DNA of 64,000 bases from an uncultured bacterium (GTDB lineage: Bacteria > Patescibacteriota > JABMPQ01 > CAVVCK01). Positions within the stretch are counted from its first letter, which is position 1, and every line of letters starts with the position of its first letter. A program made the position numbers and the translations under genes. The stretch spans positions 147,050 to 211,049 of the forward strand of contig CAVVCK010000001.1 of the NCBI GenBank assembly GCA_963746775.1. Reading direction: 5' to 3'. Under the pieces are notes generated by a model that was not told the origin of the DNA, made no database searches, and worked only from the letters and a program-made list of their open reading frames with translations. Of the stretch, positions 5,771-61,400 are shown one piece after another.

Positions 5771-5808
5771 ATTTTTTCTATCCTTTGGGAAATAAGATTA
5801 ATAATCTT

Positions 5809-7062
5809 TTATTTATTAATACTTTTTTTCTCTTTTTTCTTAATCCTGCCTTTATTTTCCTTATAATAATTAAATAAACAAACTAATATAGCCCCCATGC
5901 CAAATATTACGGCTGATATTTTAACCAAAACCCCAATAAAAGGAATCATGAATAAAATCCACAAAACAAACAGTCCTAAGATGGTAGGTAAAATTAAATT
6001 GCTATATTTCTTTTTACTTTTAGAATTAATGTATTCTAAAATTCGCTTACCTGCCCAAAGCCCCGTATATATTTTTGATACATAAAACAATACACCATAC
6101 ATCAGACCTAAAATAATAGCTAAAGGAATACCTAGAATCGTAATTGCTAATATAATAATAGCTGTAGGTGCCACTATTAATAATCCCAACCCATACAAAA
6201 AGCTTTTACCTGGTTTAGTATTTATATTATTAGCAACTTCTTCTGATTTTTTAGGAAACAATAAAATTGCTACAATGGCTACTATTAATAAAGCAAGCAC
6301 ATTATAAATCTTACCCAAAATATTACCAAACAAATTAGTTATTAATGATCTATTTTTTCTAGCTTTATCTTCCAGTTTTTCCCATTTTTTCTCACCAACT
6401 ATCATAGCTCCATCTTTTATTTCTGCCTCTTTAGGTGTCTTGTACTCTAAATTACCATCTATCTCAGCACTAGACTCAATAACAATCTTTTTACTTGCCT
6501 CACCATTCAAATTCCCGCCAATCTCTCCTAAAATTGTCATTTGCCCTACTCCAAATGTAACATTTCTTTTAACAGTTCCAGATAAATTTACCATACCTCC
6601 ACCAACTAATAAATCTCTGCCAATTTTTCCTCTCTCGCTAACATTAATCATGCCACCAGCCATCATAACATTATCTCTTACTTCTCCATCAATATTTATA
6701 GTTCCACCAGCTGCCATTAAGTCATCGGTTACTTCTCCTATTAATTCTACTGTTCCGCCAGCTACCATCAAATCTCCAAAAACTAAACCATTTATTTTTA
6801 CATCACTGCCAGCCGCAATTACATTACCATTAATATCACCGTTTATGGTCACATTAGCTGCAAATGCTTTTAAATCACCGTTAATTGTACCGTCAACTGT
6901 TATAGTTTCTCCTGTTATCACAACATCATCTTCAATTACTTCATCTTTTGAAATAGTAACAGAACTTTCTTTCAATTTTAAATTGTAAGCAAGTGTTACA
7001 CTGGGAACTAATAATAAAATAGAAAATGCAATTAATAGGAATTTTATTTTATTTTTTAGCAT
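5809..7062 (-). CDS. Membrane protein with bactofilin-like (CcmA/DUF583-type) beta-helix repeats
   Basis: N-terminal signal or anchor (MLKNKIKFLLIAFSILLLVPSVTLA), then about 8 tandem repeats of G-x-[IV]-N/G-G-D-[IVL] (e.g. TINGDINGNVIAAGSDVKINGLVFGDLMVAGGTVELIGEV...), and about 3 C-terminal transmembrane helices. Confidence 0.55.
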   Translation of the reverse strand: MLKNKIKFLLIAFSILLLVPSVTLAYNLKLKESSVTISKDEVIEDDVVITGETITVDGTINGDLKAFAANVTINGDINGNVIAAGSDVKINGLVFGDLMVAGGTVELIGEVTDDLMAAGGTINIDGEVRDNVMMAGGMINVSERGKIGRDLLVGGGMVNLSGTVKRNVTFGVGQMTILGEIGGNLNGEASKKIVIESSAEIDGNLEYKTPKEAEIKDGAMIVGEKKWEKLEDKARKNRSLITNLFGNILGKIYNVLALLIVAIVAILLFPKKSEEVANNINTKPGKSFLYGLGLLIVAPTAIIILAITILGIPLAIILGLMYGVLFYVSKIYTGLWAGKRILEYINSKSKKKYSNLILPTILGLFVLWILFMIPFIGVLVKISAVIFGMGAILVCLFNYYKENKGRIKKKEKKSINK

Positions 7063-7703: not shown

Positions 7704-9764
7704 TCACAGCCCTATTTTATCACTTATGCTTTTCATAGCATTCAGTGATATCTCAATAAACTCATCTAAACTCAAACCAAGCTTCTCACATTCTTTTATC
7801 ACTTCTCTATTGACTTTAGCGGCAAAAGATTTGTCTTTCATTTTCTTTTTTATAGATTTCACTTTCACTAACTCTAATTTCTTATCCGGTCGAATTAAAG
7901 CTGAGGCATAAATAAGCCCAGTTACAGTTTCTCCACAGCGCAGAGCATAATCTAGCTTTGTCTTGGGTTCCTCGGCATTATTATAACCAAAATTATGAGC
8001 TTTGATAGCTTGAATTAATTCTTCAGGATAATTTTTTTCTTTTAAATATTCTTCTGCTTTTAATCCATGTTCCTTGGGTTCATTATCTCCTGTCTCCTCC
8101 CAATCCAAGTCATGCAATAATCCTGTTGCTCCCCATAATTCCTCATTTTCACCTAACTTAAAAGCTAGAGCTCTCATTATAACTTCGCTTTCTAGGCTGT
8201 GAAAAATATTTGGTTTTTGTTTTACATGCTCTTTTAATAATTCAAAAGATTTTTCTCTGGATATATCAAATTTTACATCACTTTTCATACTTTTTGCTAC
8301 ATTATTGCCATTTTTGGGTTTAAGCAGTGGAAATAAAACGCACTCCCTAATAGGTTTATCCATTAGAAAAGAAAACAGTCTCTCTGATACACCAAATCCG
8401 CAAGTAGGTGGCATACCATACTCGAGAGCTTCAACGAAATCTCTGTCATGCATTTGCGCTTCATTATCTCCTTCTTCACGAAGCTTAGTTTGCTCTTCAA
8501 ATCTTTTGGCCTGATCTAGAGGATCATTTAACTCAGAATAACCATTGCCTAATTCTGATCCAGCAATAATAGGATGAAATCTTTGGGTAAATTCAGAACT
8601 ACCTTCAGTTTTTTTAGCTAAAGGAGAAATAGCTATAGGGTCATTAATTAAAAATCCCGGACCACCTATTTGTTTGCGACAATATTTCCATAAATTATCT
8701 ATAGCCCGAGTTATGTTAAATCCTTTTTTGTCATAATTTATTTTTAATTCCCTAAGTTTTTTTTCAATTTCTTCCAAAGAGACGCTCATAATATCTACTC
8801 CTGTATATTTTTTAACTGTTTCCTTATAATCATATTCCTCCCATTTCTTTTCAAGATCAACTTCAAAACCCCTTATTTTAAATTTTAGAGTTCCGAAAGT
8901 CTCACTAGCTACATATTTAAATAATTCTTCTACTAACTCCATTCCTTGTCTGTAATCTGCATAGGCCCAATAAAATTCCATCTGAGAATAATCATTTAAA
9001 TGTTCAGCATCCATACCTTCATTTCTGAATTGCCGACCTATTTCAAAAGTCTTATCAAAACCAGCCACCATTAATCTTTTCTGCCATAATTCTCCCATTG
9101 AAATACGTAAATAAAGATCAATATCTAAGGCATCGTGATGAGTAACAAAAGGATTAGCATCAGCTCCACCAGTGGCTGCTTCTAAAACAGGAGTCTCTAC
9201 TTCCAAAAATCCTTTTTTAATTAAAAAATTTCTCATACTATTCCAAAAAATAGCTTTCTTTTGAAACATCTCCCTTAATTCCGGATTCATTAAAATATCT
9301 AAATATCTTTTCCTATATCTAGTTTCTTCGTCTTTTATTCCATGCCATTTATCAGGAAGGGGTTTTATGCTTTTAGTTAGTATATTGAAATTTGATATTT
9401 CTAAAGTTTTCTCTTCTTTTTTTGTTTTAAATAATTTACCCGACACCTGAATAAAATCTCCAATATCAAAATTTTTCAAAAATTTATACTCCTCCACACC
9501 TAAAATATCTCTTCTAAAAAGTAATTGAAATTTATTAGTACCATCAAAAATATTAGCAAAAGTAGATCCACCATGTGGACGCAGAGACATAATTCTTCCT
9601 ACTAAAGTTATATTTTTCTCTTTTAATCTATTAAAATCTAAAAACGCCTCATTACAAGACATATCCCTTTTAGCTTTGGCTGGATAAGGATTAATATTAT
9701 TTTCTTTGAAATTTTCTAATTTTTGTAGTCTTACTTTTCTTATTTCTTCCTCTTGTTTTTTCAT
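7704..9764 (-). CDS. lysS: Lysyl-tRNA synthetase (class II) fused to a C-terminal HD-domain-like extension of about 190 aa
   Basis: Class II motifs RQFRNEGMDAEH..MEFYWAY and GFGVSERLFSFLMDKPIRECVLFP. The extension after about aa 495 contains H...(27)...GLLHDLD...H...D, the spacing expected for an HD phosphohydrolase fold. Confidence 0.85.
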   Translation of the reverse strand: MKKQEEEIRKVRLQKLENFKENNINPYPAKAKRDMSCNEAFLDFNRLKEKNITLVGRIMSLRPHGGSTFANIFDGTNKFQLLFRRDILGVEEYKFLKNFDIGDFIQVSGKLFKTKKEEKTLEISNFNILTKSIKPLPDKWHGIKDEETRYRKRYLDILMNPELREMFQKKAIFWNSMRNFLIKKGFLEVETPVLEAATGGADANPFVTHHDALDIDLYLRISMGELWQKRLMVAGFDKTFEIGRQFRNEGMDAEHLNDYSQMEFYWAYADYRQGMELVEELFKYVASETFGTLKFKIRGFEVDLEKKWEEYDYKETVKKYTGVDIMSVSLEEIEKKLRELKINYDKKGFNITRAIDNLWKYCRKQIGGPGFLINDPIAISPLAKKTEGSSEFTQRFHPIIAGSELGNGYSELNDPLDQAKRFEEQTKLREEGDNEAQMHDRDFVEALEYGMPPTCGFGVSERLFSFLMDKPIRECVLFPLLKPKNGNNVAKSMKSDVKFDISREKSFELLKEHVKQKPNIFHSLESEVIMRALAFKLGENEELWGATGLLHDLDWEETGDNEPKEHGLKAEEYLKEKNYPEELIQAIKAHNFGYNNAEEPKTKLDYALRCGETVTGLIYASALIRPDKKLELVKVKSIKKKMKDKSFAAKVNREVIKECEKLGLSLDEFIEISLNAMKSISDKIGL

Positions 9765-9833: not shown

Positions 9834-10292
9834 TTATTCAATCTTTAATATTTTGTATCGTATTATTCCTCCGGGAGTTGCTACTTCTACCTTATCCCCA
9901 ACTTTTTTGTCTATTAATGCCGCTCCAATAGGTGATTCATTAGAAATTTTTCCTTCTGAAGGATTAGCCTCAGAAGCTCCAACAATTTCAAAATCCATTT
10001 TTGAATCACTAAATTTAACTTTTATTTTTGAACCAGGCCTGATGGTTTTTGATTTACCATTTTTAATTACTTCAGCATTCTTTATCTTAGTTTGCAACAT
10101 AATTATTCTTCCTTCAACAAAAGCTTGTTCTTCCTTAGCTTCAGAATATTCTGCATTTTCTGACAAGTCTCCTTGCTCTAGCGCTTTTTTAATTCTTGCG
10201 GCCATTTCTTTTCTTTTCGTATTTTTCAAAAATTCTAATTCTTCTTTTAGTTTTTTTAATCCTTCTCGACTTATAATTACTTTGTTAATCAT
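9834..10292 (-). CDS. greA: Transcription elongation factor GreA
   Basis: N-terminal coiled-coil (LKKLKEELEFLKNTKRKEMAARIKKALEQGDLSENAEY) and a C-terminal FKBP-like domain; 152 aa. Confidence 0.9.
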   Translation of the reverse strand: MINKVIISREGLKKLKEELEFLKNTKRKEMAARIKKALEQGDLSENAEYSEAKEEQAFVEGRIIMLQTKIKNAEVIKNGKSKTIRPGSKIKVKFSDSKMDFEIVGASEANPSEGKISNESPIGAALIDKKVGDKVEVATPGGIIRYKILKIE

Positions 10293-10340: not shown

Positions 10341-10382
10341 TATAGATCTAGTCAAGCTTTTATATCCACAAGTCTTTATTTT

Positions 10383-11225
10383 TTACTTCTTTGATCTTTG
10401 TAAATCGAATATATTTTCTAATAATTTAGCTACGGTCACAGGACCGACTCCTCCAGGCACAGGAGTAATTAACTTAGCTTTATTATAAACTGACCCAAAA
10501 TCACAATCGCCATAAAGCTTTTTTCCTTTAAATCCTACCCCGGCATCTATCACTACTACGCCCTTCTTTACCATATCACCTTTAATTAGTTGGACTACCC
10601 CTGTGGCAGTAATTAAAACATCAGCTTGCAGAGTTATTAATCTTAAATTTTTAGTATATTTATTACAAACAGTAATCGTATTTTTATCTTGGGTTAAAAT
10701 TATACTCAAAGGTTTCCCTACTAAATCACCCCTGCCTACTATAACCACATGTTTACCAGTTAGATCTACTTTATAGCTATTTAGAAGATGCAAACAAGCT
10801 GCTGCTGTAGGAGGTAATATCACTGGCATGTCAGCTGTTAATCTACCTTGATTAAAAGAAGTTAGACAATCAACATCCAAATCAGGTCTTATCGCTTCTA
10901 ATACATTTCTTGTATTTATTCTATTTGGTAGAGGAAGCTGAATAACTAAACCAGAAAGTTTTTGATCATCTTGAATAATATTTATTTTTTTTAACAAATT
11001 ACTTTCACTAATATTCTCCGGAAAAGTAAATAATTCAAAATTTATACCTACTTCCAGACAGGCTTCTTCTTTCTTCTTGATAAAGCTGATTGAAGCTTTA
11101 TCTGCACCTACTAAAACTACAGCTAGTTTTAATTTAATATTCTCTTTTTCTAGTTTTCTAGCTTTTCTTTTTAATTTATTAAGTATTTCCTGAGCTACTT
11201 TTTTACCATCTATATTTTTTTTCAT
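10383..11225 (-). CDS. folD: Bifunctional methylene-THF dehydrogenase / methenyl-THF cyclohydrolase
   Basis: VVIVGRGDLVGKPLSIIL and PVPGGVGPVTVAKLLEN motifs; 280 aa. Confidence 0.9.
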   Translation of the reverse strand: MKKNIDGKKVAQEILNKLKRKARKLEKENIKLKLAVVLVGADKASISFIKKKEEACLEVGINFELFTFPENISESNLLKKINIIQDDQKLSGLVIQLPLPNRINTRNVLEAIRPDLDVDCLTSFNQGRLTADMPVILPPTAAACLHLLNSYKVDLTGKHVVIVGRGDLVGKPLSIILTQDKNTITVCNKYTKNLRLITLQADVLITATGVVQLIKGDMVKKGVVVIDAGVGFKGKKLYGDCDFGSVYNKAKLITPVPGGVGPVTVAKLLENIFDLQRSKK

Positions 11226-11250: not shown

Positions 11251-13194
11251 TTATTTCTTATTATTAAAATACCATTTTAAAATTTCATTAGCTATGGGAG
11301 CTGCTACTTCATTTCCTTCTCCACCTTCTTCTACTAACACCACCAAAACTATCTCCGGATCTTCGAAGGGAGCGTAAGCAGTATACCAGGCATGAGTTTG
11401 GTCACTTCCTCCATGTTGAGCTGTACCAGTTTTACCCGCAGAACTAACAGGTAAATCAGATAATAACCTACCAGAACCAGATAGCACCGTTTCTCTCATT
11501 GCCCTTTGAACCTGATTTATATATTTATTATCAATAAAATTTTCACGAATAACATTTTTCTTATTTTCAAAGATAACATTTTTATCCTGGTCAATACCTT
11601 CTTTCACAAGGTATGGCCTTAGAACTTGCCCACCGTTAGCTACAGTCGATGTCCATGATAAAACTTGCAGAGGTGTTGTTAATAAATCTCCTTGTCCGAT
11701 TGAAATATGATAAGTATCACCTAAATACCATTCTTCCCCTTTTACTTCTTGCTTCCAAGCAGGAGTAGGTATTAATCCTTCTGCTTCAGATGGTAAATCA
11801 ATACCCGTTTTTGCCCCCAGTCCAAATTTTCTAAAATACTGAATTATCTTATCAGCGCCTAGCCCCTTAAAATCCTCATAACCTCCACCTACATAATAAA
11901 AATAAATATCAGACGACTTTGCTATAGCAGAATATACATTCATGGGGCCGAGGCCAGATTTTTCCCAACCCACAAAATGATAAACCGTACTGGCATCATA
12001 CATATTAGTTACATCTATAGAACCATTATCTGTTATAGTAGTATTTTCATTAATAACACCTTCCTGAAGTCCAGCAGAAGCCATAACAGGCTTAATTGTA
12101 GAACCTGGTGGATAAATACCATTAACAGCTCTATTGTACAAAGGTTTATCTGGATCATTTAAAAATTTGTTATAATCTTCTAATTTTATTCCTTTTGAAA
12201 AAAGATTATCATCATATGAAGGAATATTGACGAAACTTAATATTTCACCAGTTTTAGGATTCATAGCAATGCATACTCCCTTTTTAGCTTTTGCTTTATT
12301 TAAACCTTCTTCCAAAAGCCTTCTTGATTCAAGCTGTAAATCTTTATCAATTGTTAAAATTAAATCTTGTCCTTCAGCTGCATCTTCTTTAGCAACAGTT
12401 TTTCTAACATTACCAACAGAATCAACTTCAACTTGTTTTTTACCTTTTGTCCCTTTTAGATTATTTTCATATTTTTTCTCTACCCCTTCTTTGCCTATAT
12501 AATCAATAGCTTGATAATCATTATTAGATTCTTCTAATTCTTCCTGACTTATTTTCCCTATATAACCCAAAATATGTGCAAATTCTTCTGGATATAGATA
12601 ATCACGAATTGGATTTTTCTCAATTTTTATACCTATGAAATTATCAAGTTTTGCTTCCATAATCAAAGCTTCATCTCTTACTAAATTTTTTTTCACTAAA
12701 ACAGGCTCATAAGAATCATTGTTAGTTTCATTTAAAAAAATATCTTTCTCTTCATCATCCAAACTAATTATTTTATTTATATCATTTAACATATTACTTT
12801 TCCCTTCAAAATTTTTTGGTAAATCTGCTGGAATAACTACTAGATCGAAAGCTGGAATATTCTTGACCAATAAATTGTTATTTCTATCATAAATAACTCC
12901 TCGCGGAGCACTTAAATTATATATTCTATAACGATTTTCTTCAGCCGCAGATCTTAAATTATCACCTGACATGATCTGTAAATAGAATACCCTACTCCAA
13001 ACTATTGTAAAAATAATGAAGATAACAAAATAAACCCACTTAAATTTTTTATAATCAAAGAGTGGTTTTACTGTTCTAGGCCTAAAGGGACCAGAATCTA
13101 CTAGAGTTTCTTCCCATTCGTATCCTTCGTTCCCTTTTTTATTCTTTTTTTCAATATGACCTATTTCCGGAATTATAAAAGGATTTTTCTCCAT
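11251..13194 (-). CDS. mrdA: Penicillin-binding protein 2 (class B transpeptidase)
   Basis: N-terminal membrane anchor. Transpeptidase motifs STIKP (SxxK), SSD (SxN-like) and KTGTA. Located downstream of mreBCD. Confidence 0.85.
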   Translation of the reverse strand: MEKNPFIIPEIGHIEKKNKKGNEGYEWEETLVDSGPFRPRTVKPLFDYKKFKWVYFVIFIIFTIVWSRVFYLQIMSGDNLRSAAEENRYRIYNLSAPRGVIYDRNNNLLVKNIPAFDLVVIPADLPKNFEGKSNMLNDINKIISLDDEEKDIFLNETNNDSYEPVLVKKNLVRDEALIMEAKLDNFIGIKIEKNPIRDYLYPEEFAHILGYIGKISQEELEESNNDYQAIDYIGKEGVEKKYENNLKGTKGKKQVEVDSVGNVRKTVAKEDAAEGQDLILTIDKDLQLESRRLLEEGLNKAKAKKGVCIAMNPKTGEILSFVNIPSYDDNLFSKGIKLEDYNKFLNDPDKPLYNRAVNGIYPPGSTIKPVMASAGLQEGVINENTTITDNGSIDVTNMYDASTVYHFVGWEKSGLGPMNVYSAIAKSSDIYFYYVGGGYEDFKGLGADKIIQYFRKFGLGAKTGIDLPSEAEGLIPTPAWKQEVKGEEWYLGDTYHISIGQGDLLTTPLQVLSWTSTVANGGQVLRPYLVKEGIDQDKNVIFENKKNVIRENFIDNKYINQVQRAMRETVLSGSGRLLSDLPVSSAGKTGTAQHGGSDQTHAWYTAYAPFEDPEIVLVVLVEEGGEGNEVAAPIANEILKWYFNNKK

Positions 13195-13722
13195 TTAAGT
13201 TTTCGCTTTTATTCTATCATTATATCGTATAGAAAAATCACGAAAGAAATTTACAAATCTATAAAATAGAAACATTAGTATAATATTTAATACTATACCT
13301 CCTAAAATTTTATACCATAAAGGTTGTAAATATCCTACAAATTTCAAATCAACAAATTTAAGAATAAAAAATATTAAAAATATAAGTAAATAATAAAATA
13401 AAGTAGCTAGTGTAATTATACCAATTCTAGTATAAATATTGTTCATATCAACAAAATGAGAAATTATTAAATAAATTATTATCATAGTAATGATTAAACT
13501 TATCATATTAATTCCAAAAAAAGTACTTGAAAATAAATCTAGCAAAAATCCTCCCAAAACTGCACCATACAATCCATTTTTATAATTTTTTAGAATGCAC
13601 CAACTAATCACAAAAACTAGCATTAAATTTGGTACAGAGCCTAATAATTCAAAATGAGGCAGGAAAGAAGCCTGCAATATAGCTAATAACGAAATTAGAA
13701 GTGTTAATAAAAATAAAACCAT
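13195..13722 (-). CDS. mreD: Rod shape-determining protein MreD
   Basis: 175-aa polytopic membrane protein lying between mreC and pbp2. Assigned by operon position and hydrophobicity. Confidence 0.6.
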   Translation of the reverse strand: MVLFLLTLLISLLAILQASFLPHFELLGSVPNLMLVFVISWCILKNYKNGLYGAVLGGFLLDLFSSTFFGINMISLIITMIIIYLIISHFVDMNNIYTRIGIITLATLFYYLLIFLIFFILKFVDLKFVGYLQPLWYKILGGIVLNIILMFLFYRFVNFFRDFSIRYNDRIKAKT

Positions 13723-39116: not shown

Positions 39117-40964
39117 TTATTCTAAAATTGCTTTTATTCTTCTAATGCCCCTAGAGCTTGCTTTTTCTGATTTTATTTTAAATTTACCTAATTCGGAAGT
39201 ATTGGAAACATGAGGACCGCCGCACATTTCCATAGAAATATTACCTATAGAATATACTTTCACTTTATCACCATATTTATCTTTAAATAAACCCATAGCA
39301 CCTTTATTTCTAGCCTCATCATAAGACATTTCCTCGCATTTAACTTCAATTCCTTGAGCAATCCATTTGTTCACTAAATTTTCTACCTCAATAATTTGTT
39401 CTGGAGTCATTTTTTCATCATAACTAAAATCAAACCTTAATCGCTCAACTGTAATGTTGCTTCCCTTTTGAAATACCTGATCTCCCAATACTTGTCTTAG
39501 AGCTGCCTGTAATAAATGGGTAGCTGTATGTAATTTTTTAGTCTCCTCTGTATTATCTGCTAGACCACCTTTGAATTTTTTTTCTGCACCAACTTTTGAT
39601 ATTTCTTGAAACTTTTTCTTACCAATCTCATAACCTTTTTTAAAATCATCTGTTGATATTCTTTCTTTAAGTTCAGATGTTAAATTTTCCCACAAAGTTT
39701 CTTTAAAATATCTATGAGTATTCCATAGATGATAAGCAAATTTACCAGCTGCAATACTTACATTATCTAACTTATGATCAATAAACGCTGCCTTTAGCCA
39801 TTTTAAATCTCCTCCTGGATTTAAATTTAACCTTTCGGGATATCTTTCTAAAACAGCTATTCTCTTGTTAATTCTCGGAATTCTTTTCTCGTATTCTTCT
39901 TTCGTAAATTTTTCTTCTTCTGTAATAGTTTTAATTATATACTCTCTTTTATCCCTTAAATTTTTATATTCTGTAATACTACCACAAACATCAATTACTT
40001 TATTAACTACATTAATATAAGAAAAAGAACGCCTTTGCTTATTTATTTCATCAAAAGCATCTCTAAGTAATCTTCTTAATACCGAACCTTTTTCATCTTT
40101 AGATGGCAAAACACCATCTGCAATTAAAAAAACAGCTGCTCTTATGTGGTCACTTATGATTCTTCTGTTCTCAACATCTACACCTTCATTTTCTTTCCTA
40201 CCCGATCCTCTTAATAATCCCTCTTCTTTTTCTACTTCTTCCACAATCTCATAAAGTTCATTTGTATTATATACGGAAGACTTGTTATTTATTACTGCTG
40301 ATAATCTTTCTAGTCCCATTCCTGTATCAATACCTTTATACTCTAAGCTCTTGTACTGCCCATTTTTAAATACGTACTCATTAAAAACTAGATTCCAAAT
40401 TTCTATACCATCTATATAAAATTCTACAGTAGGTCCTCCCGGAGACCCCTCCATTCCAAGTGACCAGAAATTATCATCAAATCCCTGAGGTCTAATTTCT
40501 GATAAAGATAAGCCATCAATTTTTTTTAATATTTCAAAGGATTCTTTGTCCTCTGGAATTTCCCTATTTCCCTCAAAATATGTAGCACTAATTCTTTCTT
40601 TTTTAATTTTCAAAACTTCTGTTAAAAATTCCCAGGCATACTCAATAGCTTTTTCTTTAAAATAAGATCCTTTAATTTTTGGATATCCAAAAGAAAAATT
40701 ACCCAGCATTTCAAAAAATGTTAAGTGTGTACTGTCTCCCACTTCTTCAATATCTGAAGTTCTTAGACATTTTTGAATAGATGTAACTGGAACGTAAGAA
40801 GCTTTTTCTGGATTTAAATAATAATCTTTAAATTGTTGCATACCTGCAGTAGTAAAATGAACAGTTTTATCATTTTCAGGAATTAAAGAAGCAGAAGGAA
40901 TAATTTTGTGTCCCCTTTTTTCAAAAAATTCTAAATATTTTTGTCTTAATTCCTGAGAAGTCAT
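39117..40964 (-). CDS. alaS: Alanyl-tRNA synthetase, short form lacking the C-Ala domain
   Basis: N-terminus ..FFEKRGHKIIPSASLIPENDKTVHFTTAGMQQFKDYYL; editing-domain HTATHLLQAALRQVLG and CGGPHV zinc motif. Only 615 aa. Confidence 0.9.
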   Translation of the reverse strand: MTSQELRQKYLEFFEKRGHKIIPSASLIPENDKTVHFTTAGMQQFKDYYLNPEKASYVPVTSIQKCLRTSDIEEVGDSTHLTFFEMLGNFSFGYPKIKGSYFKEKAIEYAWEFLTEVLKIKKERISATYFEGNREIPEDKESFEILKKIDGLSLSEIRPQGFDDNFWSLGMEGSPGGPTVEFYIDGIEIWNLVFNEYVFKNGQYKSLEYKGIDTGMGLERLSAVINNKSSVYNTNELYEIVEEVEKEEGLLRGSGRKENEGVDVENRRIISDHIRAAVFLIADGVLPSKDEKGSVLRRLLRDAFDEINKQRRSFSYINVVNKVIDVCGSITEYKNLRDKREYIIKTITEEEKFTKEEYEKRIPRINKRIAVLERYPERLNLNPGGDLKWLKAAFIDHKLDNVSIAAGKFAYHLWNTHRYFKETLWENLTSELKERISTDDFKKGYEIGKKKFQEISKVGAEKKFKGGLADNTEETKKLHTATHLLQAALRQVLGDQVFQKGSNITVERLRFDFSYDEKMTPEQIIEVENLVNKWIAQGIEVKCEEMSYDEARNKGAMGLFKDKYGDKVKVYSIGNISMEMCGGPHVSNTSELGKFKIKSEKASSRGIRRIKAILE

Positions 40965-40970
40965 ATTTAT

Positions 40971-41186
40971 TTATAAATCCATTTCTATTTTTTCAATTTC
41001 CTTAGAAGCTCTTGCTTCCTGCTCTCTTAACTCATCAATTTCAGCCTCTAATAATTCTTTCTGTCTTTCAAATTCATCTAAATTTTTTTCTACTTCTTTT
41101 AAATTTTTTTCTTTTAAATCAATATCCATACGCAAATCTTCTAAATCTCCTTTTAATTGATTTACAGGATCAGAAAAATCTTTCAT
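40971..41186 (-). CDS. Small coiled-coil protein (71 aa), unknown function
   Basis: Heptad-rich E/K/L sequence. Preceded by conserved element copy A. Confidence 0.4.
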   Translation of the reverse strand: MKDFSDPVNQLKGDLEDLRMDIDLKEKNLKEVEKNLDEFERQKELLEAEIDELREQEARASKEIEKIEMDL

Positions 41187-41197
41187 ATGTTTTTTTA

Positions 41198-41245
41198 TTT
41201 ATGTGAATTACAAAACTTATCAATGATATTTCCGCCTATCTCGCC
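41198..41245 (-). promoter_or_regulatory. Conserved upstream element, copy A (18-mer box plus AUUUCCGC box), followed by a G+C-enriched stem-loop region to 41345
   Basis: TTTATGTGAATTACAAAA (41198-41215), 11 nt, then ATTTCCGCCTATC (41227-41240). Element B is nearly identical. Downstream, GCATTCCGC..GCGGATAATGC can form a stem. Confidence 0.4.
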
Positions 41246-41407
41246 TCTAATGGCGATGCCGTCAGAGGCAACCGCAACAATCCGCATTATCCGCAATTTC
41301 TACTACTGCAGATATGACAGATTTAGCGGAATGCAGATAATTATTTAATTTAGTAATTCATTATTTGGAAATTATAACAAATAAAAAAGAGGTAAACAAT
41401 GAGATTA

Positions 41408-42502
41408 TTATTTAATAATACCTCCTCCTAATAATTCTTCTTTATTATAAAAAACTGCTGATTGCCCTGAAGTTACAGCTTTCTCCGAACTTTCAAATTC
41501 CACCAAACCAGTTTTCTTAACTTTATTATATTTTAAAATTTTGACTCTAACTACTTTTTGTCTATACCGCATTTGACAATCAGCCATTAATGGAAAATTC
41601 ATTTTTCTTTCTGACACCCAGTTCATATCAAAAGTCCTAAATTGCTTTATAAAAATCCTTTTATCATTAAGATCCTGAGTTACTATAAGCTTATTTTCCT
41701 TTATGTTCTTCTTTATTACATAATATGCATCACCTCCCCCTATCCCAATGCCTTTTCTTTGCCCAATAGTGTAGAAAGGTAACCCTTGATGGTTACCTAT
41801 TTTTCTTCCCTCAGTATTTACAATTAACCCTGGTTTTATATTTTTAATATACTTTTTTAAAAATATTTCTAATCCTTCTTTTGGCAAAAAACACACATCC
41901 TGACTTTCTTTTATCTCGGCCACAGGTAATTTAAATTTTTTAGCCAATTTCCTAACTTCACTTTTTTTGTAACTACTAATTGGGAAAAGCAATTGAGCTA
42001 GTTTTTTTTGATTTAAGTTATATAAAAAATAAGATTGATCTTTATTTTTATCTTCTGCTCTAAAAATTTTATATTCTGATTTTAAATTATTTATTCTAAA
42101 TTTTACATTTTTTACATAATGCCCTGTAGCCAAATAATCTCCTCCTATAGCTTTTATTTTATTAAATAAAAAGCCGAATTTAATCTTTTTATTGCAAACA
42201 ACACAAGGATTAGGAGTATTCCCTAATTTATATTCTTTAATAAAATAATCAACCACTTGCTTCTTAAATTCTTCACTACAATCAAAAACATAAAAAGGAA
42301 TATTTAAAATTTTAGCTACTTTCCTAACTCTTTTTAAGGACTCTGAGGAACAGCATTTATTTTTGGAATTAGCTAAACATCTATCCTGCCAAAATTTTAA
42401 AAATACTCCAGTAACATAATAACCTTTATTTTTTAATAAAGCAGCTACTACCGAAGAATCAACTCCACCCGACATAGCTACAATAACTTTTTTTCTATTC
42501 AT
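41408..42502 (-). CDS. mnmA: tRNA-specific 2-thiouridylase
   Basis: PP-loop VIVAMSGGVDSSVVAALL; 364 aa. Confidence 0.9.
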   Translation of the reverse strand: MNRKKVIVAMSGGVDSSVVAALLKNKGYYVTGVFLKFWQDRCLANSKNKCCSSESLKRVRKVAKILNIPFYVFDCSEEFKKQVVDYFIKEYKLGNTPNPCVVCNKKIKFGFLFNKIKAIGGDYLATGHYVKNVKFRINNLKSEYKIFRAEDKNKDQSYFLYNLNQKKLAQLLFPISSYKKSEVRKLAKKFKLPVAEIKESQDVCFLPKEGLEIFLKKYIKNIKPGLIVNTEGRKIGNHQGLPFYTIGQRKGIGIGGGDAYYVIKKNIKENKLIVTQDLNDKRIFIKQFRTFDMNWVSERKMNFPLMADCQMRYRQKVVRVKILKYNKVKKTGLVEFESSEKAVTSGQSAVFYNKEELLGGGIIK

Positions 42503-42517
42503 CGCTTTCCCATATAT

Positions 42518-44113
42518 TTAATCAATTTTAACAACATTTCCTGGATTAAGATTTTTGTTTATAGGTTTTTTTGTTTTATTATTAAGTTGATTCGGTTTTG
42601 AATTTTTTGAAGATTGATTATTATTATTTCTTTTATCCTCATTTGAATTACTATTCTGGCCTTCTTTCTTTTTCTGGCTCATTAAATCACCTAATAATTT
42701 TTTAAATGGTTGATGATATTCTTCTGATTTACTTTCATTTTTAGATTGATTCCTATTATTACCTCCTCTATATCCTTGTTTGTTGTTCTTCTCATTCACA
42801 GGTAAATCAATATCATCATTCATGCCACTCCAGCGAGCAATTTTCTCTTCTACTATCTCTCGCTTTTTAGCATATCTCTCTCTTGAAACTTTTATAATTT
42901 TTTCTCTGTTACCTTCCTCTTTCCACTCAGGGGGAACAGTACTCGCAGAAAAAGCTTGGCTAGCTACTCCATTTATCATTAATTTCAAATAAATATTATA
43001 TTTAGATAAATTAACTAAATCATTCTCCTCAAAAACAGGTTCAAATTCCTTAGCTAAAAATTCTGAATCCGTACCTCCAATTCTGAAAGTAACTATCGTT
43101 CCTACATTTCCAAAAACGGCATCACGAACTTTAGTACTACCGCCTATTTCAAGCTGACCAATATATTGATGAGCCATAATTAAATCTAGACGATATTTTC
43201 TGGCTTCTGATAAAATATCAGCAAAACTATCAGTGGCAAAATTTTGAAATTCATCAACATATAAATAAAAATCAGCTCGCTCTTCCTCAGGAATATCCAC
43301 CCGTGACATAGCCGCTAATTGCAAATGGGTTACCATCATAGCTCCAAATAAGGCTGAGGCATCTTCTCCGATTCTTCCTTTGGCCAAATTTAAAATTAAA
43401 ATTTTCTTATTATCCATCACTTCTCTAACATTAATGGTAGATTTGGGTTGTCCAACAATATTGCGTATTAGTGAAATAGATAAAAATTGACCAATTTTAT
43501 TTTGAATAGGAGCAATCGCCTCACTGGCAAATTTATCCGGATACTTGGAAAATTCTTCCACCCAAAAAGCTTTAACAATTGGATCTTTAACTTGAGTAAT
43601 AACTTTATTTCTAAATTTTTGATCAGTTAACATCCTCATCGTTCCAAGTAAAGTACTGCCCTGATAATCCAGCAAAGCCAAAATAGTATTTCTTAAAACA
43701 TATTCTAAACGAGGTCCCCAGCTATCTGCCCAAATCTTTTTAAAAACCCCCACCAGACCAGAGGAAATCAAATGTTTATATTCTGGATTATCATTTTCCA
43801 TGACATTAAAAGCAATCGGCCAATCAGCATCACCCGGATTAAAATAAATTACATCGTTAACCCTACTATTTGGTACATAATTAAGCATTTTATCGGCAAA
43901 TTCACCATGAGGATCTACAATACAAAAACCATTGCCATTATTAATATCCGAAATAACTAATTGCTCCATTAAAGTAGTTTTACCCATACCAGTCTTACCA
44001 ACAATATACATATGGCGTCTGCGATCATCTCTTAGAATACCAAACTTTTTTCTTTGGTTTCTAAAATTAGTTTCAGCAAAAATAGTTATTTGATCGTCTT
44101 GTTTCTTGGGCAT
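42518..44113 (-). CDS. Soluble VirD4/TraG/TrwB-family (type IV coupling protein-like) ATPase with N/K/Q-rich C-terminal tail
   Basis: Walker A HMYIVGKTGMGKTT, followed by CIVDPHGEF..VIYFNPGDADWPIAFNVME (T4CP DPKGE...fNPL pattern). Walker B YLYVDEFQNF, then RKYRLDLIMAHQYIGQL...FGNVGTIVTF (T4CP Q..QL / N motifs). No N-terminal transmembrane helices. The last 120 aa or so are low-complexity. Confidence 0.65.
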   Translation of the reverse strand: MPKKQDDQITIFAETNFRNQRKKFGILRDDRRRHMYIVGKTGMGKTTLMEQLVISDINNGNGFCIVDPHGEFADKMLNYVPNSRVNDVIYFNPGDADWPIAFNVMENDNPEYKHLISSGLVGVFKKIWADSWGPRLEYVLRNTILALLDYQGSTLLGTMRMLTDQKFRNKVITQVKDPIVKAFWVEEFSKYPDKFASEAIAPIQNKIGQFLSISLIRNIVGQPKSTINVREVMDNKKILILNLAKGRIGEDASALFGAMMVTHLQLAAMSRVDIPEEERADFYLYVDEFQNFATDSFADILSEARKYRLDLIMAHQYIGQLEIGGSTKVRDAVFGNVGTIVTFRIGGTDSEFLAKEFEPVFEENDLVNLSKYNIYLKLMINGVASQAFSASTVPPEWKEEGNREKIIKVSRERYAKKREIVEEKIARWSGMNDDIDLPVNEKNNKQGYRGGNNRNQSKNESKSEEYHQPFKKLLGDLMSQKKKEGQNSNSNEDKRNNNNQSSKNSKPNQLNNKTKKPINKNLNPGNVVKID

Positions 44114-44122
44114 AATTATATT

Positions 44123-44164
44123 TTTATGTGAATTACAAAATACCTTTTATATTTTCCGCTTATC
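44123..44164 (-). promoter_or_regulatory. Conserved upstream element, copy B
   Basis: TTTATGTGAATTACAAAA (44123-44140), 10 nt, then ATTTTCCGCTTATC (44151-44164). This is followed by nested UCCGC/GCGGA and AUCCGC/GCGGAU inverted repeats up to about 44215. Confidence 0.4.
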
Positions 44165-44257
44165 CGCAATACTTAAACATATGGATCAAGCGGATTTTGG
44201 CGGATATAACAGATAAATTTCCAATTCGTTATTCGCATCTTTTTAATATTCTATATT

Positions 44258-45562
44258 TCACTCCACTGGCAAATCTACTGGTGGTTCTTTAGTTTTTGCT
44301 TCAGATCTAGAGATAGTCGGAGCTTTAACTGTAATATATGGAAAATGAAAAACAGTAGCAATTTCTTCAATATTTAGAACAAAAGGAGAAGCAACTTGAT
44401 CCATTTCACGACTTTTGTAATTTCTCATCAACCTGCGTTCCCTTCTTGGATTTCTATATTTCTGGAAATACTCAACTTTTGACAAAGATTTTTCATTAAG
44501 CCTAAATCCATTAAGGAATTGATCATTGAAAAGACTAACTGATCCAAAAATAGGAGCCGCTCCTTTGGCTTTATTAAATACTTCTTTGCGAGCTATATAT
44601 ATAAATCTAAATTTAACCTCATATGCAGTCTTAGATAAACTTTTTTCAATAGCTTCTACTACTTTTTGTTCTCCTGGAGATAAATATTGCACCAAGGATG
44701 GTACATCCATTTTACCCTCAGATGATTCCACTTCTTCAAATCCTAGGGTAGATTCTATCCCTTTAAAAAGTCCATGTAATAAACCTACACTAGATCTTAA
44801 TGGTCTCTCAATAAGACCTACTTTTTCTTCAACAGCTTTACCGATTAATTTATTAACTACTTTTTCCCCCTCTTTCTTCCACTGATCACGAATAGGCTTA
44901 ATTATAAATTGAATCCATAATTGTTCTCCTTCTCCAAGCCTTGACATCATTTCTGTTAATACAGATAGTGGATCAATAAATTTATTTTCTTTTTCCCCTA
45001 ATTTATTTTCGAATTCATAATAAGTCTTAATTGGATAAGCATCATCCTTAGCTAAACCAAATTCTAGACCGTACATTTTATATTTATCATTAGGATAATT
45101 ATCTGGAGCAAACTTAGTATAATCTTCTACCTCAGTAATTTCTGCCTCTGGATATTGTGAATAGAGACTTGCTTCAACCAAGTCTCTAAAATAATCAGGT
45201 GTTCTAACAATAAAACGCACATTGCCATTAATACTAACCAATTCTAAGCTTAAATATACCTGCGTCTCTCCTTTAAAATATTTTTCAACAAAATTACGTC
45301 CAGACTCAATACCATAGCAACCAGCTAAAACTTGCTCCATTGCACTTGGATTTTTATCACTCTCAGGTGACACAGTAACAGCTAAATAAATAAATTTAAT
45401 AGATTCTATAAACTTAGCTCGTTTTTTTAGTAACCAAATATAGTAAATTAAGAATAATAAAGGAGGAATGGTAAGCCACCATATCCTTGAGAAAACCCAT
45501 AAAGTTAAGCTCCAAAACTCCAAAAAATACTCTAATTGTTCATAAATAAAAGAGTAATCCAT
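44258..45562 (-). CDS. Hypothetical membrane protein (N-terminal TM hairpin plus ~390-aa soluble domain), partner of the T4CP-like ATPase
   Basis: 434 aa. Hydrophobic segment around aa 15-45 (FLEFWSLTLWVFSRIWWLTIPPLLFLIYYIWLL). No recognised motif. Lies immediately upstream of the ATPase in the same orientation. Confidence 0.4.
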   Translation of the reverse strand: MDYSFIYEQLEYFLEFWSLTLWVFSRIWWLTIPPLLFLIYYIWLLKKRAKFIESIKFIYLAVTVSPESDKNPSAMEQVLAGCYGIESGRNFVEKYFKGETQVYLSLELVSINGNVRFIVRTPDYFRDLVEASLYSQYPEAEITEVEDYTKFAPDNYPNDKYKMYGLEFGLAKDDAYPIKTYYEFENKLGEKENKFIDPLSVLTEMMSRLGEGEQLWIQFIIKPIRDQWKKEGEKVVNKLIGKAVEEKVGLIERPLRSSVGLLHGLFKGIESTLGFEEVESSEGKMDVPSLVQYLSPGEQKVVEAIEKSLSKTAYEVKFRFIYIARKEVFNKAKGAAPIFGSVSLFNDQFLNGFRLNEKSLSKVEYFQKYRNPRRERRLMRNYKSREMDQVASPFVLNIEEIATVFHFPYITVKAPTISRSEAKTKEPPVDLPVE

Positions 45563-45668: not shown

Positions 45669-46805
45669 TTAAGCAATCTGCTGGGCTAATTTATATGTTC
45701 CTTTTTCAACTCTTTGAAATAAATTTTTATCTTGTAGAGTTAAAATTATAGTATTCTCTTTAACCATTCTCTGCTTTAATACTTCTTTTATAATTTTATT
45801 TTTTGATAAGGGTTTGCTTTCATTTTTTAGAACTGAGGCAATAATATCCTTGACAGTACCTTCTTTATAGCCCCATTCTTTCAAAGCATATATACCTCTT
45901 CCAACTAAAATAAAACGAGAATCTTTAATCAACTCATTATGAACAGTTTGCATATTAGCCTGTCTTTTAGAAAATCCTTTATTGTTGATCATTTCTGTAA
46001 TTTTTCTAAAATGTAGTGGTTTTCCATTTTTCTTCAATACAATATAAGCCCTATCTCTAACACCACGAGGCATAATTTCATTCCAATGATTTAGGCCCCA
46101 TTCATTATAAGGATTCTTCTGAATTTTTTTACTTAAATTAAGATAAGATAGTAATGCCTTATTGTTACCCAATAGTTCCATTTCTTCAACCAAATCACTA
46201 TTTTTTGAGATTAGCTCTGTAAATTTATCTTCAGAAAATGGTTTATTTTCTTTCTCTAGTACCCTAATTGCAGAATTAATAATTTTCTCAGCCATTTTTA
46301 TATCAGAATTTTTTAATCCCCAAGCTTTTTTAAGCCTATCATTTTCTTTAAAATCTATAAATCTATCACTCAATTTTAAAATAAATTCAACTAAATTTCC
46401 ATGAGCTTTTTCATGTTGTAACTTTTCAACGCATTTACCTACCAAATCATTATGACTCATCAATTCACCATGTTTTGATAATAGTTCTTCCAAAGAATCT
46501 TCTAAAAGTTTAATATGACCGGCTGCTTTAAATTTTTTAAGTTCAGATAGAGTAGAAGATTCTATTTGTCTTACTCTCTCTCTAGTAATTCCATATTCTT
46601 TTCCGATTTCTTCTAATGTTTTTTTCTTACCACCATCAAGTCCAAAACGTTTTATAATAATATCTCTGCTTCTTTTTTGTGATAATTCATCTAATAATTT
46701 ATATATCAAATCAGCCGGACTTAAGCCGGAAAAATTACACTCCTGATTATTATTATATTGTATATTCTTTAAATTTTCTGTCATTTTATATAATCTTTTA
46801 TACAC
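45669..46805 (-). CDS. DNA-binding protein with an N-proximal sigma-70 region-4-like HTH and a C-terminal HARE-HTH-like winged helix
   Basis: aa 55-100: DIIIKRFGLDGGKKKTLEEIGKEYGITRERVRQIESSTLSELKKF (sigma region 4.2 pattern). aa 235-300: RDRAYIVLKKNGKPLHFRKI...SRFILVGRGIYALKEWGY (HARE-HTH pattern). No sigma region 2. Confidence 0.55.
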   Translation of the reverse strand: MYKRLYKMTENLKNIQYNNNQECNFSGLSPADLIYKLLDELSQKRSRDIIIKRFGLDGGKKKTLEEIGKEYGITRERVRQIESSTLSELKKFKAAGHIKLLEDSLEELLSKHGELMSHNDLVGKCVEKLQHEKAHGNLVEFILKLSDRFIDFKENDRLKKAWGLKNSDIKMAEKIINSAIRVLEKENKPFSEDKFTELISKNSDLVEEMELLGNNKALLSYLNLSKKIQKNPYNEWGLNHWNEIMPRGVRDRAYIVLKKNGKPLHFRKITEMINNKGFSKRQANMQTVHNELIKDSRFILVGRGIYALKEWGYKEGTVKDIIASVLKNESKPLSKNKIIKEVLKQRMVKENTIILTLQDKNLFQRVEKGTYKLAQQIA

Positions 46806-53834: not shown

Positions 53835-53907
53835 TGGGATGTACAGGATTCGAACCTGTGACCTTCTGCTTAAAAGGCAGCTGCTCTACCAACTGAGCTA
53901 ACATCCC
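53835..53907 (-). tRNA. tRNA-Lys (anticodon UUU)
   Basis: Minus strand GGGATGTTAGCTCAGTTGGTAGAGCAGCTGCCTTTTAAGCAGAAGGTCACAGGTTCGAATCCTGTACATCCCA. 7-bp acceptor stem, D-arm GCTC/GAGC, anticodon loop CTTTTAA (U33, anticodon TTT, A37), T-loop TTCGAAT, 73 nt, CCA not encoded. Confidence 0.85.
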
Positions 53908-59762: not shown

Positions 59763-60056
59763 GGGAATTTATTTAAATTATATCAAAGTAAAGTGAATCT
59801 GCTAGATAAAAATTATCTATTTTTTGTTTATTTTTAGGCAAAATAACCATTTTAACTTGACATTTACCCCTAAATTATGCTTGACTTTTTTGTACGGTGT
59901 TTTACAGTATAAGTGAAAAGTTGTTTAGACTTTTATTTTGAAAGATGCATATATATTTCAATTTTAAATGAATTGAAATGTAGAATGTTCCTTCAAAACT
60001 TTTTTCTGAAACACAACAACAATTCCTCTTTTAAAAGAGGGGTAGGGAGATTTACT

Positions 60057-61400
60057 ATGGAACCCAAGGTTGGCGATATCATCAATAATAAGTATGAACT
60101 GATCAGGGAACTTGGCAGCGGAAGTATGGGAGTGGTATTCCTGGCCATCCACCAGCTCTTGAGGGCTCGTGTGGCCATCAAGTTCATCAATTCAGAGTTG
60201 GTACAGAATAAGGAGGCTAGGAGACGCTTCCTTTTGGAAGCACAAATCGGGGCAGAGATTAAACACCCCGGAGTAGTGTCTGTTTCAGACATCGAGGCAA
60301 ATGGGTACATCTTCATTGTGATGGAGTACCTCGAAGGCAGGGGTCTCGATAAAATTATTAATGAAAAAGGCTGTATTGTTGAAATTGAGTTTGCTATTGA
60401 TGTAACGATACAAATCCTGCGTGCACTCCTTGTGGTGCACGAAAAAGGGATTATCCATCGTGATCTCAAACCGGAAAACATCTTCATCACAGAAGGTGGT
60501 GAAGTCAAAATTATGGATTTCGGGATCGCCAAGGCTAGATCGGCAGCCCTCGCCACTACACATGAGCTGACCAGCGTTGGGACAATCAATGGGACCCCCC
60601 ATTATATGTCCCCGGAACAGTGCTGCGGTTCAAAGAGCATCAACCATCAAACCGATATCTGGTCGGTAGGCATCATGCTCTACGAGATGCTTACGGGGTG
60701 TTTCCCCTACATAGGGGACACTTCTAGCGATATTATAAATAGAATCCTTGACGGGGGAACCAATCCCCCTAAGGCTCTAAATCCGACTATTTCAGAAGGA
60801 CTCGAAAGAGTCATTCTGAAGGCAATGGAACCGGTACCGCAAAAACGGTACCAGAGTGCCAAGGAGTTCTTGGTCGACCTCGAGAGTCTTGAAGAACATC
60901 CTGCCTATACACCTCCTCCTCCGACGCCTACGACCACCGTACACGAGGCCGAAACGGTTATCGTGCAAAAGGTCGACGACTCAGAACCAAAAAAAAAGCA
61001 CTGGAGACTTCCTGTGACAATCGCTATCGCCGTTCTGATCATCGGTGCTTTCACGGGATGGTTCATCTCTCAACCTCAACCTTCTACTGAACCTCAAGTC
61101 ACTGATCCAACTCCAACGAAAGTTGTTGAATCTACACCCGTCGCTCAAGCTCAAGCTGAACCGGAACCACCCGCTCCGCCTGAGAAAGCTACACCTCCGC
61201 CTGAACCCGAACCTCAGCCAAGCGCCGAAGCAACAGCCGAACCCACCAAGCGCGCCCCACCTCCCCGACCAGCAAAGCAGGCCACTCCCGAGCCTCGCCG
61301 CCCTCACCCCACTGTCGAAGAGGAGCCACCACCCATCATAGTGGTTCCGCAAAGGCCACCTACTCCTCCCCCCATCATCGTTCTTTCTCAAAGAAGGTAG
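60057..61400 (+). CDS. Hanks-type Ser/Thr protein kinase with TM helix and Pro-rich C-terminal extracellular tail
   Basis: GSGSMGVV (Gly loop), VAIKFI (Lys), HRDLKPENIFI, DFGIAKA, GTPHYMSPE; TM WRLPVTIAIAVLIIGAFTGWFI; P/E/T-rich tail. Start taken at ATG 60057 (RBS aGAGGGGtaGGGAG) rather than the ORF-track ATG 59913, which adds 48 AT-rich codons. Confidence 0.85.
   Translation: MEPKVGDIINNKYELIRELGSGSMGVVFLAIHQLLRARVAIKFINSELVQNKEARRRFLLEAQIGAEIKHPGVVSVSDIEANGYIFIVMEYLEGRGLDKIINEKGCIVEIEFAIDVTIQILRALLVVHEKGIIHRDLKPENIFITEGGEVKIMDFGIAKARSAALATTHELTSVGTINGTPHYMSPEQCCGSKSINHQTDIWSVGIMLYEMLTGCFPYIGDTSSDIINRILDGGTNPPKALNPTISEGLERVILKAMEPVPQKRYQSAKEFLVDLESLEEHPAYTPPPPTPTTTVHEAETVIVQKVDDSEPKKKHWRLPVTIAIAVLIIGAFTGWFISQPQPSTEPQVTDPTPTKVVESTPVAQAQAEPEPPAPPEKATPPPEPEPQPSAEATAEPTKRAPPPRPAKQATPEPRRPHPTVEEEPPPIIVVPQRPPTPPPIIVLSQRR

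Follow-up and report, generated by a model that had tools for sequence, protein, structure and literature searches.

Two intergenic spacers of a Patescibacteria genome share an imperfectly palindromic non-coding element that is absent from the same sites in close relatives

We analyzed a 64-kb stretch of contig CAVVCK010000001.1 from an uncultured bacterium, referred to below as the window, in which two intergenic spacers contain copies of one non-coding element. The copies, E1 and E2, are located upstream of a gene encoding a coiled-coil protein of 71 amino acids (cc71) and of a gene encoding a VirD4/TrwB-like P-loop ATPase, respectively. The window is compact and AT-rich (about 31% G+C), its GC skew is uniformly negative (about -0.3), and nearly all of its genes are carried by the minus strand. 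Among the protein matches, relatives of the ATPase were annotated as Patescibacteria (candidate phyla radiation, CPR). The gene order on the minus strand is sigma-70 region 4/HARE-HTH protein, DUF8128 membrane protein, ATPase, MnmA, and cc71, followed by genes for alanyl-tRNA synthetase and an FtsA-like protein (Table 1). The 55 spacers of the window have a median length of 62 nt; the cc71 spacer (221 nt) ranks seventh and the ATPase spacer (144 nt) ranks eleventh. Both lengths had been given correctly in an initial annotation made from the sequence alone, which also described the two spacers as GC-enriched; this holds in comparison with the other spacers (0.32 and 0.26 versus a mean of 0.22) but not in comparison with the window (0.31). 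The G+C content of the element cores is 0.43 in E1 and 0.36 in E2.

Table 1. Coordinates of the element copies, their parts and the surrounding genes in the window, and of repeated spacer sequences in four other loci (L020, L040, L048, and L071).
Feature	Coordinates	Strand	Details
Sigma-70 region 4/HARE-HTH protein gene	45669-46805	-	open reading frame (ORF) and domain scan
DUF8128 membrane protein gene	44258-45562	-	ORF and domain scan
VirD4/TrwB-like P-loop ATPase gene	42518-44113	-	TrwB_AAD_bind, DUF87, and TraG-D_C domains; downstream of E2
MnmA gene	41408-42502	-	ORF and domain scan
cc71 gene (71-aa coiled-coil protein)	40971-41186	-	downstream of E1; relatives keep a 71-72 aa gene
E1, about 163 nt	41198..41360	-	cc71 5' leader; long imperfect palindrome, four nested box pairs and an extra branch
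18-mer, copy 1	41198..41215	-	end of E1 nearest the gene; its GTAATTCA forms the outer stem's right arm (terminal inverted repeat)
Left terminal inverted repeat of E1	41353..41360	-	sense TGAATTAC, perfect complement of GTAATTCA
Box region of E1	41231..41337	-	left TCTGC / CCGC / AATCTGT / TATCTGC pair with right GCGGA / GCGG / GCGGATT / TTGCGGATA
Extra GC-rich hairpin, E1 only	41243..41269	-	27 nt, GCCTCT...AGAGGC
E2, about 105 nt	44123..44227	-	DUF8128-ATPase spacer; possibly reaching about 44240
18-mer, copy 2	44123..44140	-	end of E2 nearest the gene; its UAAUUC is the partner of GAAUUG, one G.U
Left terminal repeat of E2	44221..44227	-	degenerate, sense GAATTGG
Box region of E2	44154..44205	-	two nested box pairs; TCCGCC-AAAA-TCCGC, 22-nt loop, GCGGAT-AA-GCGGA
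cc71 sigma-70-type promoter	41371..41399	-	TTGTTT, 17 nt, TGtTATAAT; alignment by eye with relatives
Weak promoter-like site	44245..44272	-	TTGCCA, 16 nt, AATATT, 9/12 matches; upstream of E2, where the DUF8128 gene ends
L071, four hairpin copies of about 110 nt	2073-2272, 5765-5997, 8975-9171, 10357-10598		each before a co-directional gene
L048, three copies	5840-5994, 12480-12653, 13040-13199		
L040, two copies	2692-2793, 4117-4223		
L020, near-consensus promoter block	9843-10133, 11427-11803		CTTGACAAATAT...ATATG[A/C]TA[C/T]A[A/T]T

The exact 18-mer TTTATGTGAATTACAAAA, which reads TTTTGTAATTCACATAAA on the sense strand, was found twice in the window. Both copies have the same orientation, that of the sense (minus) strand of the downstream gene, and a nearly equal distance to the start codon: the 18-mer ends 11 nt before the ATG of cc71 (41186) and 9 nt before that of the ATPase gene (44113). 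In the respective copies, ATTTCCGCCTATC stands 12 nt and ATTTTCCGCTTATC 10 nt after the 18-mer. When up to three mismatches were allowed, the sole further match in the window was an A/T-rich chance one at position 27302; searches of the window give no indication of a generic AT-rich repeat strewn through coding regions. In these points, the initial annotation was confirmed. Its argument that an exact 18-mer is unlikely to recur by chance in 64 kb proved to be wrong: at least one such repeat was present in 73% of Markov-3 simulations, and the window itself contains a second repeated exact 18-mer, a low-complexity one (8030/41102). The same 18-mer was also encountered in eight viral contigs, by chance and within coding DNA.

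Local alignment of the two spacers gave a score of 44, compared with 21 ± 3 (maximum 35) in 1000 dinucleotide shuffles (z 7.6). A colinear chain consisting of TTATCTG, TCCGCT, ATTGCGGATAA, GCGGAAA, and the 18-mer exceeded 500 of 500 shuffles. Boxes of the WTCCGC/GCGGAW type occur 25 times in the 64 kb, and eight of them are located inside the two spacers (four in each), which together comprise 365 nt, or 0.6% of the window; every other 150-nt interval holds two at most. The two spacers share one element, the significance of which rests on the extended module and the clustering of boxes, not on the 18-mer alone. The shared module of about 45 nt proposed initially is thus real, but the shared stretch extends past this length: conservation is robust in the 44 nt nearest the gene, where about 38 of 44 alignment columns are identical, and in ATTGCGGATAA(T)GCGGA; the remainder is colinear and weaker. 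An independent Logan assembly of run ERR11571143 was identical over 12.2 kb including both spacers; therefore, the repeat is not an assembly artefact.

The terminal repeats form a perfect 8-bp pair in E1, while in E2, GAATTGG faces GTAATTC inside the 18-mer and pairing covers six positions, one of them G.U; these repeats are short for a transposase-recognised end. Every mismatch to CCGC in the left-arm boxes of E1 is a C-to-U change that keeps G.U pairing in the sense RNA, a pattern equally compatible with a constraint at the RNA level or with a strong C-to-T strand bias. The extra hairpin of E1 sits within some 50 nt that have a direct repeat of GCGGA at either end. The sense RNA of E2 pairs UAUCU with AGGUA, UUAUA-UCCGC with GCGGA...UAUAA, and AUCCGC with GCGGAU around the 22-nt loop. 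MAFFT misaligns the left ends of the two copies. At 105 and 163 nt, both copies are short and non-coding: no conserved ORF was present, and the mini-ORFs of the sense strand differ. A mini-ORF of 21 codons (MRITNWKFICYIRQNPLDPYV) is located at the left edge of E2 (44233-44170, minus strand); it is probably meaningless because its equivalent in E1 is only ATG-AAT-TAC-TAA.

The CCGC/GCGG-based stems described in the initial annotation were supported by folding, which was significantly better than that of shuffled sequences in both copies. For the elements alone, predicted folding energies were -56.1 kcal/mol (z -5.9) in the sense and -41.2 kcal/mol (z -3.9) in the antisense direction of E1, and -27.1 kcal/mol (z -3.5) and -19.6 kcal/mol (z -2.3), respectively, for E2. 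The base of the hairpin is located 16-20 nt ahead of the AUG in both copies.

Close relatives with ATPases 83-86% identical to that of the window (P0002-P0007) were used for comparison; P0002-P0005 and P0007 are encoded by nine contigs (L081-L089), which keep the gene order of the window from a radical-SAM gene through FtsA. Conservation in related genomes, on which the initial annotation had made its proposal depend, was not evident: both sites are empty in nine of nine syntenic relatives. The DUF8128-ATPase spacer is 19-20 nt long in the relatives (144 nt in the window), and the spacer between MnmA and the counterpart of cc71 (cc72) is 57-68 nt long (221 nt in the window). At the ATPase site, window and relatives agree to the left and right of about 115-120 extra nt: the arrangement ATAGAATATTAA...[insert]...AAATATAATTATG of the window corresponds to the empty site ATAGAATATTAATATAAATAATTATG of L088. 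The element was also absent from all of 80 more distant loci in which the gene is present; at 74 distant Patescibacteria loci the upstream gene could be defined, and in about 50 of these the DUF8128-ATPase junction is shorter than 50 nt. Since spacers are short both in the relatives and in most of the distant loci, the short state is ancestral, and the element was gained at both sites in the lineage of the window. The comparison shows both gains to postdate the split from the relatives with ATPases of 83-86% identity.

Neither nhmmer nor blastn-short searches with both copies revealed a further copy in the window or in any of the fetched loci, and none was present in the 8.8 kb beyond the window. 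In the Rfam search of the whole window at the gathering score, only tRNA-Lys at position 53835 passed; with E values of up to 10, the region 40900-44600 gave two meaningless sub-threshold matches, both outside the spacers. In metagenome contigs of the JGI, the exact pattern GCGGAAA-N6-20-TTGTAATTCACATAAA had no matches, while TCCGC-N15-40-ATTGCGGATAA-N0-1-GCGGA had 52, none of them resembling the element; the G+C content of these loci was 37-66% (31% here), and many of them represented one recurring conserved sequence. The box pattern was not found in viral contigs, and blastn searches in distant mode against plasmid and phage collections gave no match. Among the sequences searched, the element appears to be private to this genome.

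Regarding transcription, E1 begins about 3-5 nt past the start of the cc71 transcript predicted from its promoter. The corresponding cc72 promoter of the relatives (L081-L087 and L089) consists of TTGCAT, 16 nt, and TGtTATAAT, with a canonical extended -10. Because this conserved promoter is located upstream of E1, E1 is almost certainly a transcribed insertion and not the promoter. The promoter is kept across relatives with coding sequences that have diverged to about 84% amino acid identity and represents a clean example of an extended -10 in CPR bacteria. The site of E2 is a tight operon junction in the relatives. The weak promoter-like site upstream of E2 is not conserved in them, so that co-transcription with the DUF8128 gene is the likelier source of E2 RNA. 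Judging from this arrangement, both copies almost certainly lie in DNA transcribed in the sense direction. We failed to find, by promoter scan or by eye, a shared -35/-10 pair with a spacing of 16-18 nt in or around the 18-mer. An outward promoter or leaderless mRNA was rejected, with no shared hexamer pair and with the TATAAT of E2 ending 2 nt from the ATG. Intrinsic terminators were excluded because no U-run was present; no terminator-like site was identified on the sense strand of either spacer, and the sequence after the hairpins is A-rich.

We favor the reading, with a probability of roughly 0.55, that the spacers hold diverged copies of one low-copy, lineage-specific, imperfectly palindromic non-coding insertion, similar to miniature inverted-repeat transposable elements (MITEs), enterobacterial repetitive intergenic consensus (ERIC) sequences, or Correia elements, which is transcribed along with the genes and forms a hairpin in the RNA. 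The insertion would be bounded by the terminal inverted repeats TGAATTAC...GTAATTCA, the right one lying within the 18-mer, and one arm would be a series of ATCCGC-type boxes, the opposite arm a series of GCGGAT boxes. By comparison with the relatives, each insertion landed about 10 nt ahead of a start codon, in DNA that was almost certainly transcribed before, one of them a few nucleotides past the predicted start of the cc71 transcript and the other in the 19-20-nt DUF8128-ATPase junction. As both copies are in almost certainly transcribed DNA, RNA is the likeliest mode of action. The sense transcript is predicted to fold into a long hairpin that pairs the 5' end of the element with UUUUGUAAUUC of the 18-mer; the 3' arm would take up the first 11 nt of the 18-mer, and ACAUAAA together with the 9-11 A/U-rich nucleotides that precede the AUG would stay unpaired. 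At the 5' end or between cistrons, a structure of this type would change the processing of the mRNA (as an RNase III-type substrate), its stability, or the translation of the downstream gene; by analogy with Correia elements and with the intercistronic RNase III sites of phage T7, it could mark where the transcript is processed, stabilise the 5' end, or modulate initiation. The better preservation of the gene-proximal 44 nt suggests a constraint, either on a transposition end or on the region of initiation, or else a tract of gene conversion.

The initial annotation proposed a shared operator, promoter, or RNA module. This proposal was supported in part: one element with well-folding stems stands in the same orientation before both genes; it is not conserved in the relatives and does not bring a shared -35/-10 pair. 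Co-regulation of the cc71 and ATPase genes by the element is possible as a recent lineage-specific acquisition, and under the insertion reading such regulation would have arisen as a side effect or been co-opted recently. The comparison of genomes does not support an ancient conserved regulator.

Several observations weigh against an insertion of this kind. Just two copies were present in the approximately 73 kb examined (the window and the 8.8 kb beyond it), a scan of 17 proteins of the window revealed neither a transposase nor a RAYT, and the candidate target-site duplications, TAA and AAATAA, readable on both sides, are not above chance at such A/T-rich junctions; with these gaps, membership in the MITE type is incomplete. 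The left terminal repeat of E2 is degenerate. Without the 18-mer, the block chain is only marginal, being matched by 11-28 of 500 shuffles (p about 0.02-0.06), and the similarity beyond the gene-proximal 44 nt is only marginally significant. The C-to-U pattern could stem from strand mutation bias, given the GC skew, and not from selection on RNA. Finally, analogous families in other genomes, described below, are without an advantage of sense over antisense folding.

Read as an insertion, the element is ordinary in kind and would belong to the class of small palindromic repeats. Like the Correia elements (CREE) of Neisseria, it is small (about 100-160 bp), non-coding, provided with terminal inverted repeats (putative ones here), and intergenic near gene starts, with a long co-transcribed RNA hairpin, here a predicted one, and with junctions compatible with A/T-rich or TA insertion. 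The Correia RNA hairpin in Neisseria is cut by RNase III and can alter expression. There is no sequence similarity between the two, and box-built ATCCGC arms are not a feature of Correia elements, which occur in hundreds of copies with terminal repeats of 26 bp and a clear duplication of TA. The repeats of the window element are of about 8 bp, two copies are known, and no duplication is callable. ERIC sequences (also called intergenic repeat units, IRU) of enterobacteria and the palindromic elements of Rickettsia are likewise imperfect palindromes of about 100-150 bp, intergenic and transcribed, variably present among relatives, and with variants differing by internal indels, to which the block of about 50 nt in E1 may be compared. 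Their sequences are unrelated to ours, and copy number is apparently low here; Rickettsia palindromic elements also enter coding regions, which was not seen in the window. Repetitive extragenic palindromic (REP) sequences and their composites (BIME, REPIN) share with the element paired inverted short GC-rich palindromic units, an extragenic position, and a long hairpin. REP sequences and REPINs differ in their usual location at 3' ends of genes, a conserved GTAG-type head, an associated RAYT gene, and tens to hundreds of copies, none of which could be shown for our element; both of its known copies are 5' of genes. RNase III processing hairpins are located between the early genes of phage T7 in a polycistronic transcript, and these, too, are similar hairpins repeated just before the starts of successive co-directional genes. 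The element is not of phage origin, and its stems are longer and interrupted by a periodicity of boxes and spacers; the T7 hairpins serve as the functional analogy for the way in which it may act.

Dedicated transcriptional control is an unlikely alternative, according to which the WTCCGC/GCGGAW boxes would be operators for one protein, with the 18-mer in a shared core promoter or operator, in a small regulon of two genes. The four boxes of each spacer are 8-10 bp apart, about one helical turn, and partly inverted, at a density unique in the window; the much better conservation of the gene-proximal 44 nt and the agreement of the copies in orientation and ATG distance would also suit operators. 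The module is absent, however, before the same genes in all relatives examined, no -35/-10 pair with suitable spacing is shared around the 18-mer, and the native promoter of cc71 is located upstream of the element. No obvious dedicated regulator unique to the genome adjoins the sites, as the sigma-70 region 4/HARE-HTH gene is also present in the element-free relatives.

We are doubtful of a lineage-specific structured leader RNA, serving as a platform for an RNA-binding protein or as a sensor and duplicated to control two genes. It would account for better folding of the sense than of the antisense strand in both copies, for the G.U-preserving changes of all degenerate boxes, and for hairpin bases placed 16-20 nt ahead of both AUGs. 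Mutation bias, however, can mimic the G.U pattern, and two sequences do not permit a real covariation test. No relative is present in Rfam, the element is not conserved upstream of orthologues (0 of 9 close and 0 of 80 distant loci), and the architectures differ greatly, with four box pairs and an extra 27-nt hairpin in E1 and two box pairs in E2.

A unit of a stem-loop TIGR (tandem interspaced guide RNA) array, or another small guide or antisense RNA gene, is highly improbable. Stem-loop TIGR arrays, in which palindromic stems flank short spacers at flexible positions, exist in Patescibacteria (bioRxiv 10.64898/2026.09.09.750476). The stem-loop TIGR unit was rejected since neither box C (RUGAUGA) at the 5' stem nor box D (CUGA) at the 3' stem is common to both copies, a loop of 22-28 nt leaves no room for two spacers and a loop, and no Nop or Tas-like domain is encoded by the neighboring genes (sigma-70 region 4/HARE-HTH, DUF8128, TrwB-like ATPase, and MnmA); the elements are also single units and form no array. 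Chance resemblance of two A/T-rich spacers, for which the expected recurrence of an exact 18-mer in most random sequences of this composition and its occurrence in viral contigs would speak, is effectively refuted by the alignment and block chain exceeding all shuffles, by the crowding of boxes into the two spacers, and by the agreement in orientation and start distance of two copies inserted relative to the same relatives.

A cluster of DnaA boxes was also rejected. TTATCCGCA is one mismatch from TTATCCACA; 21 near-matches were counted versus 20.4 expected, and no switch of GC skew was observed. In another part of the window, a Ser/Thr protein kinase gene (59913-61400, plus strand) forms an island of 47-53% G+C in a genome of about 30% G+C; it was possibly acquired horizontally.

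The DUF8128-ATPase junction also carries hairpins in other Patescibacteria. Among 20 distant loci in which this junction is expanded to 60-250 nt, the sense strand folds with z below -3 in 10. The junction normally measures 1-30 nt; expanded junctions often consist of a single large hairpin or of short tandem repeats (L004, L015, L017, L044, L054, L067, L074, L079, and L080). Many of the hairpins are built of short boxes that stand in tandem on one arm and are mirrored on the other, and each genome has sequences of its own. The sequence of the ATPase-junction spacer recurs in other spacers of the same locus in 5 of 90 loci (L071, L048, L040, L020, and L065). The repeats of L071, L048, and L040 resemble the window element in being imperfect hairpins of 75-200 nt with mirrored tandem boxes of 7-12 nt upstream of co-directional genes; there are 2-4 copies per 11-13 kb, one of which precedes the ATPase orthologue. 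The right arm of the hairpin ends 0-30 nt before the ATG in L048 and L040. The sequence is entirely different in each genome. Families of this type show no sense-strand folding bias, and some fold better in the antisense direction; such a bias was therefore rejected as a general property of CPR hairpin repeats. In L020, two of three similar spacers share a TTGACA...TGnTAnAAT promoter and not a hairpin, so that some of the similarity between CPR spacers reflects repeated strong promoters instead of hairpin repeats. Full-text searches of the literature revealed no paper describing such elements in Patescibacteria.

These loci raise the tentative and rather unlikely prospect that the window element is an instance of an undescribed, widespread feature of Patescibacteria: genome-specific families of hairpins, built of tandem mirrored boxes of 6-10 nt, upstream of start codons inside operons and recurrent at the DUF8128-ATPase junction. 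In genomes with few promoters and regulators, they would serve as modules for RNA processing or for the setting of expression, or as arrays to which a lineage-specific factor binds. A Patescibacteria-wide habit of placing genome-specific hairpin repeats before start codons is speculative.

The finding itself is modest. If the insertion reading is true, even a CPR genome of about 0.55 Mb in which the median spacer measures 62 nt tolerates palindromic inserts, or uses them, a few nucleotides ahead of gene starts and in a tight operon junction, and repeated upstream motifs should not be read straight off as conserved regulons. The finding would gain greater weight if the genome-specific hairpin repeats of several other Patescibacteria turned out to be generally used to set expression along polycistronic transcripts.

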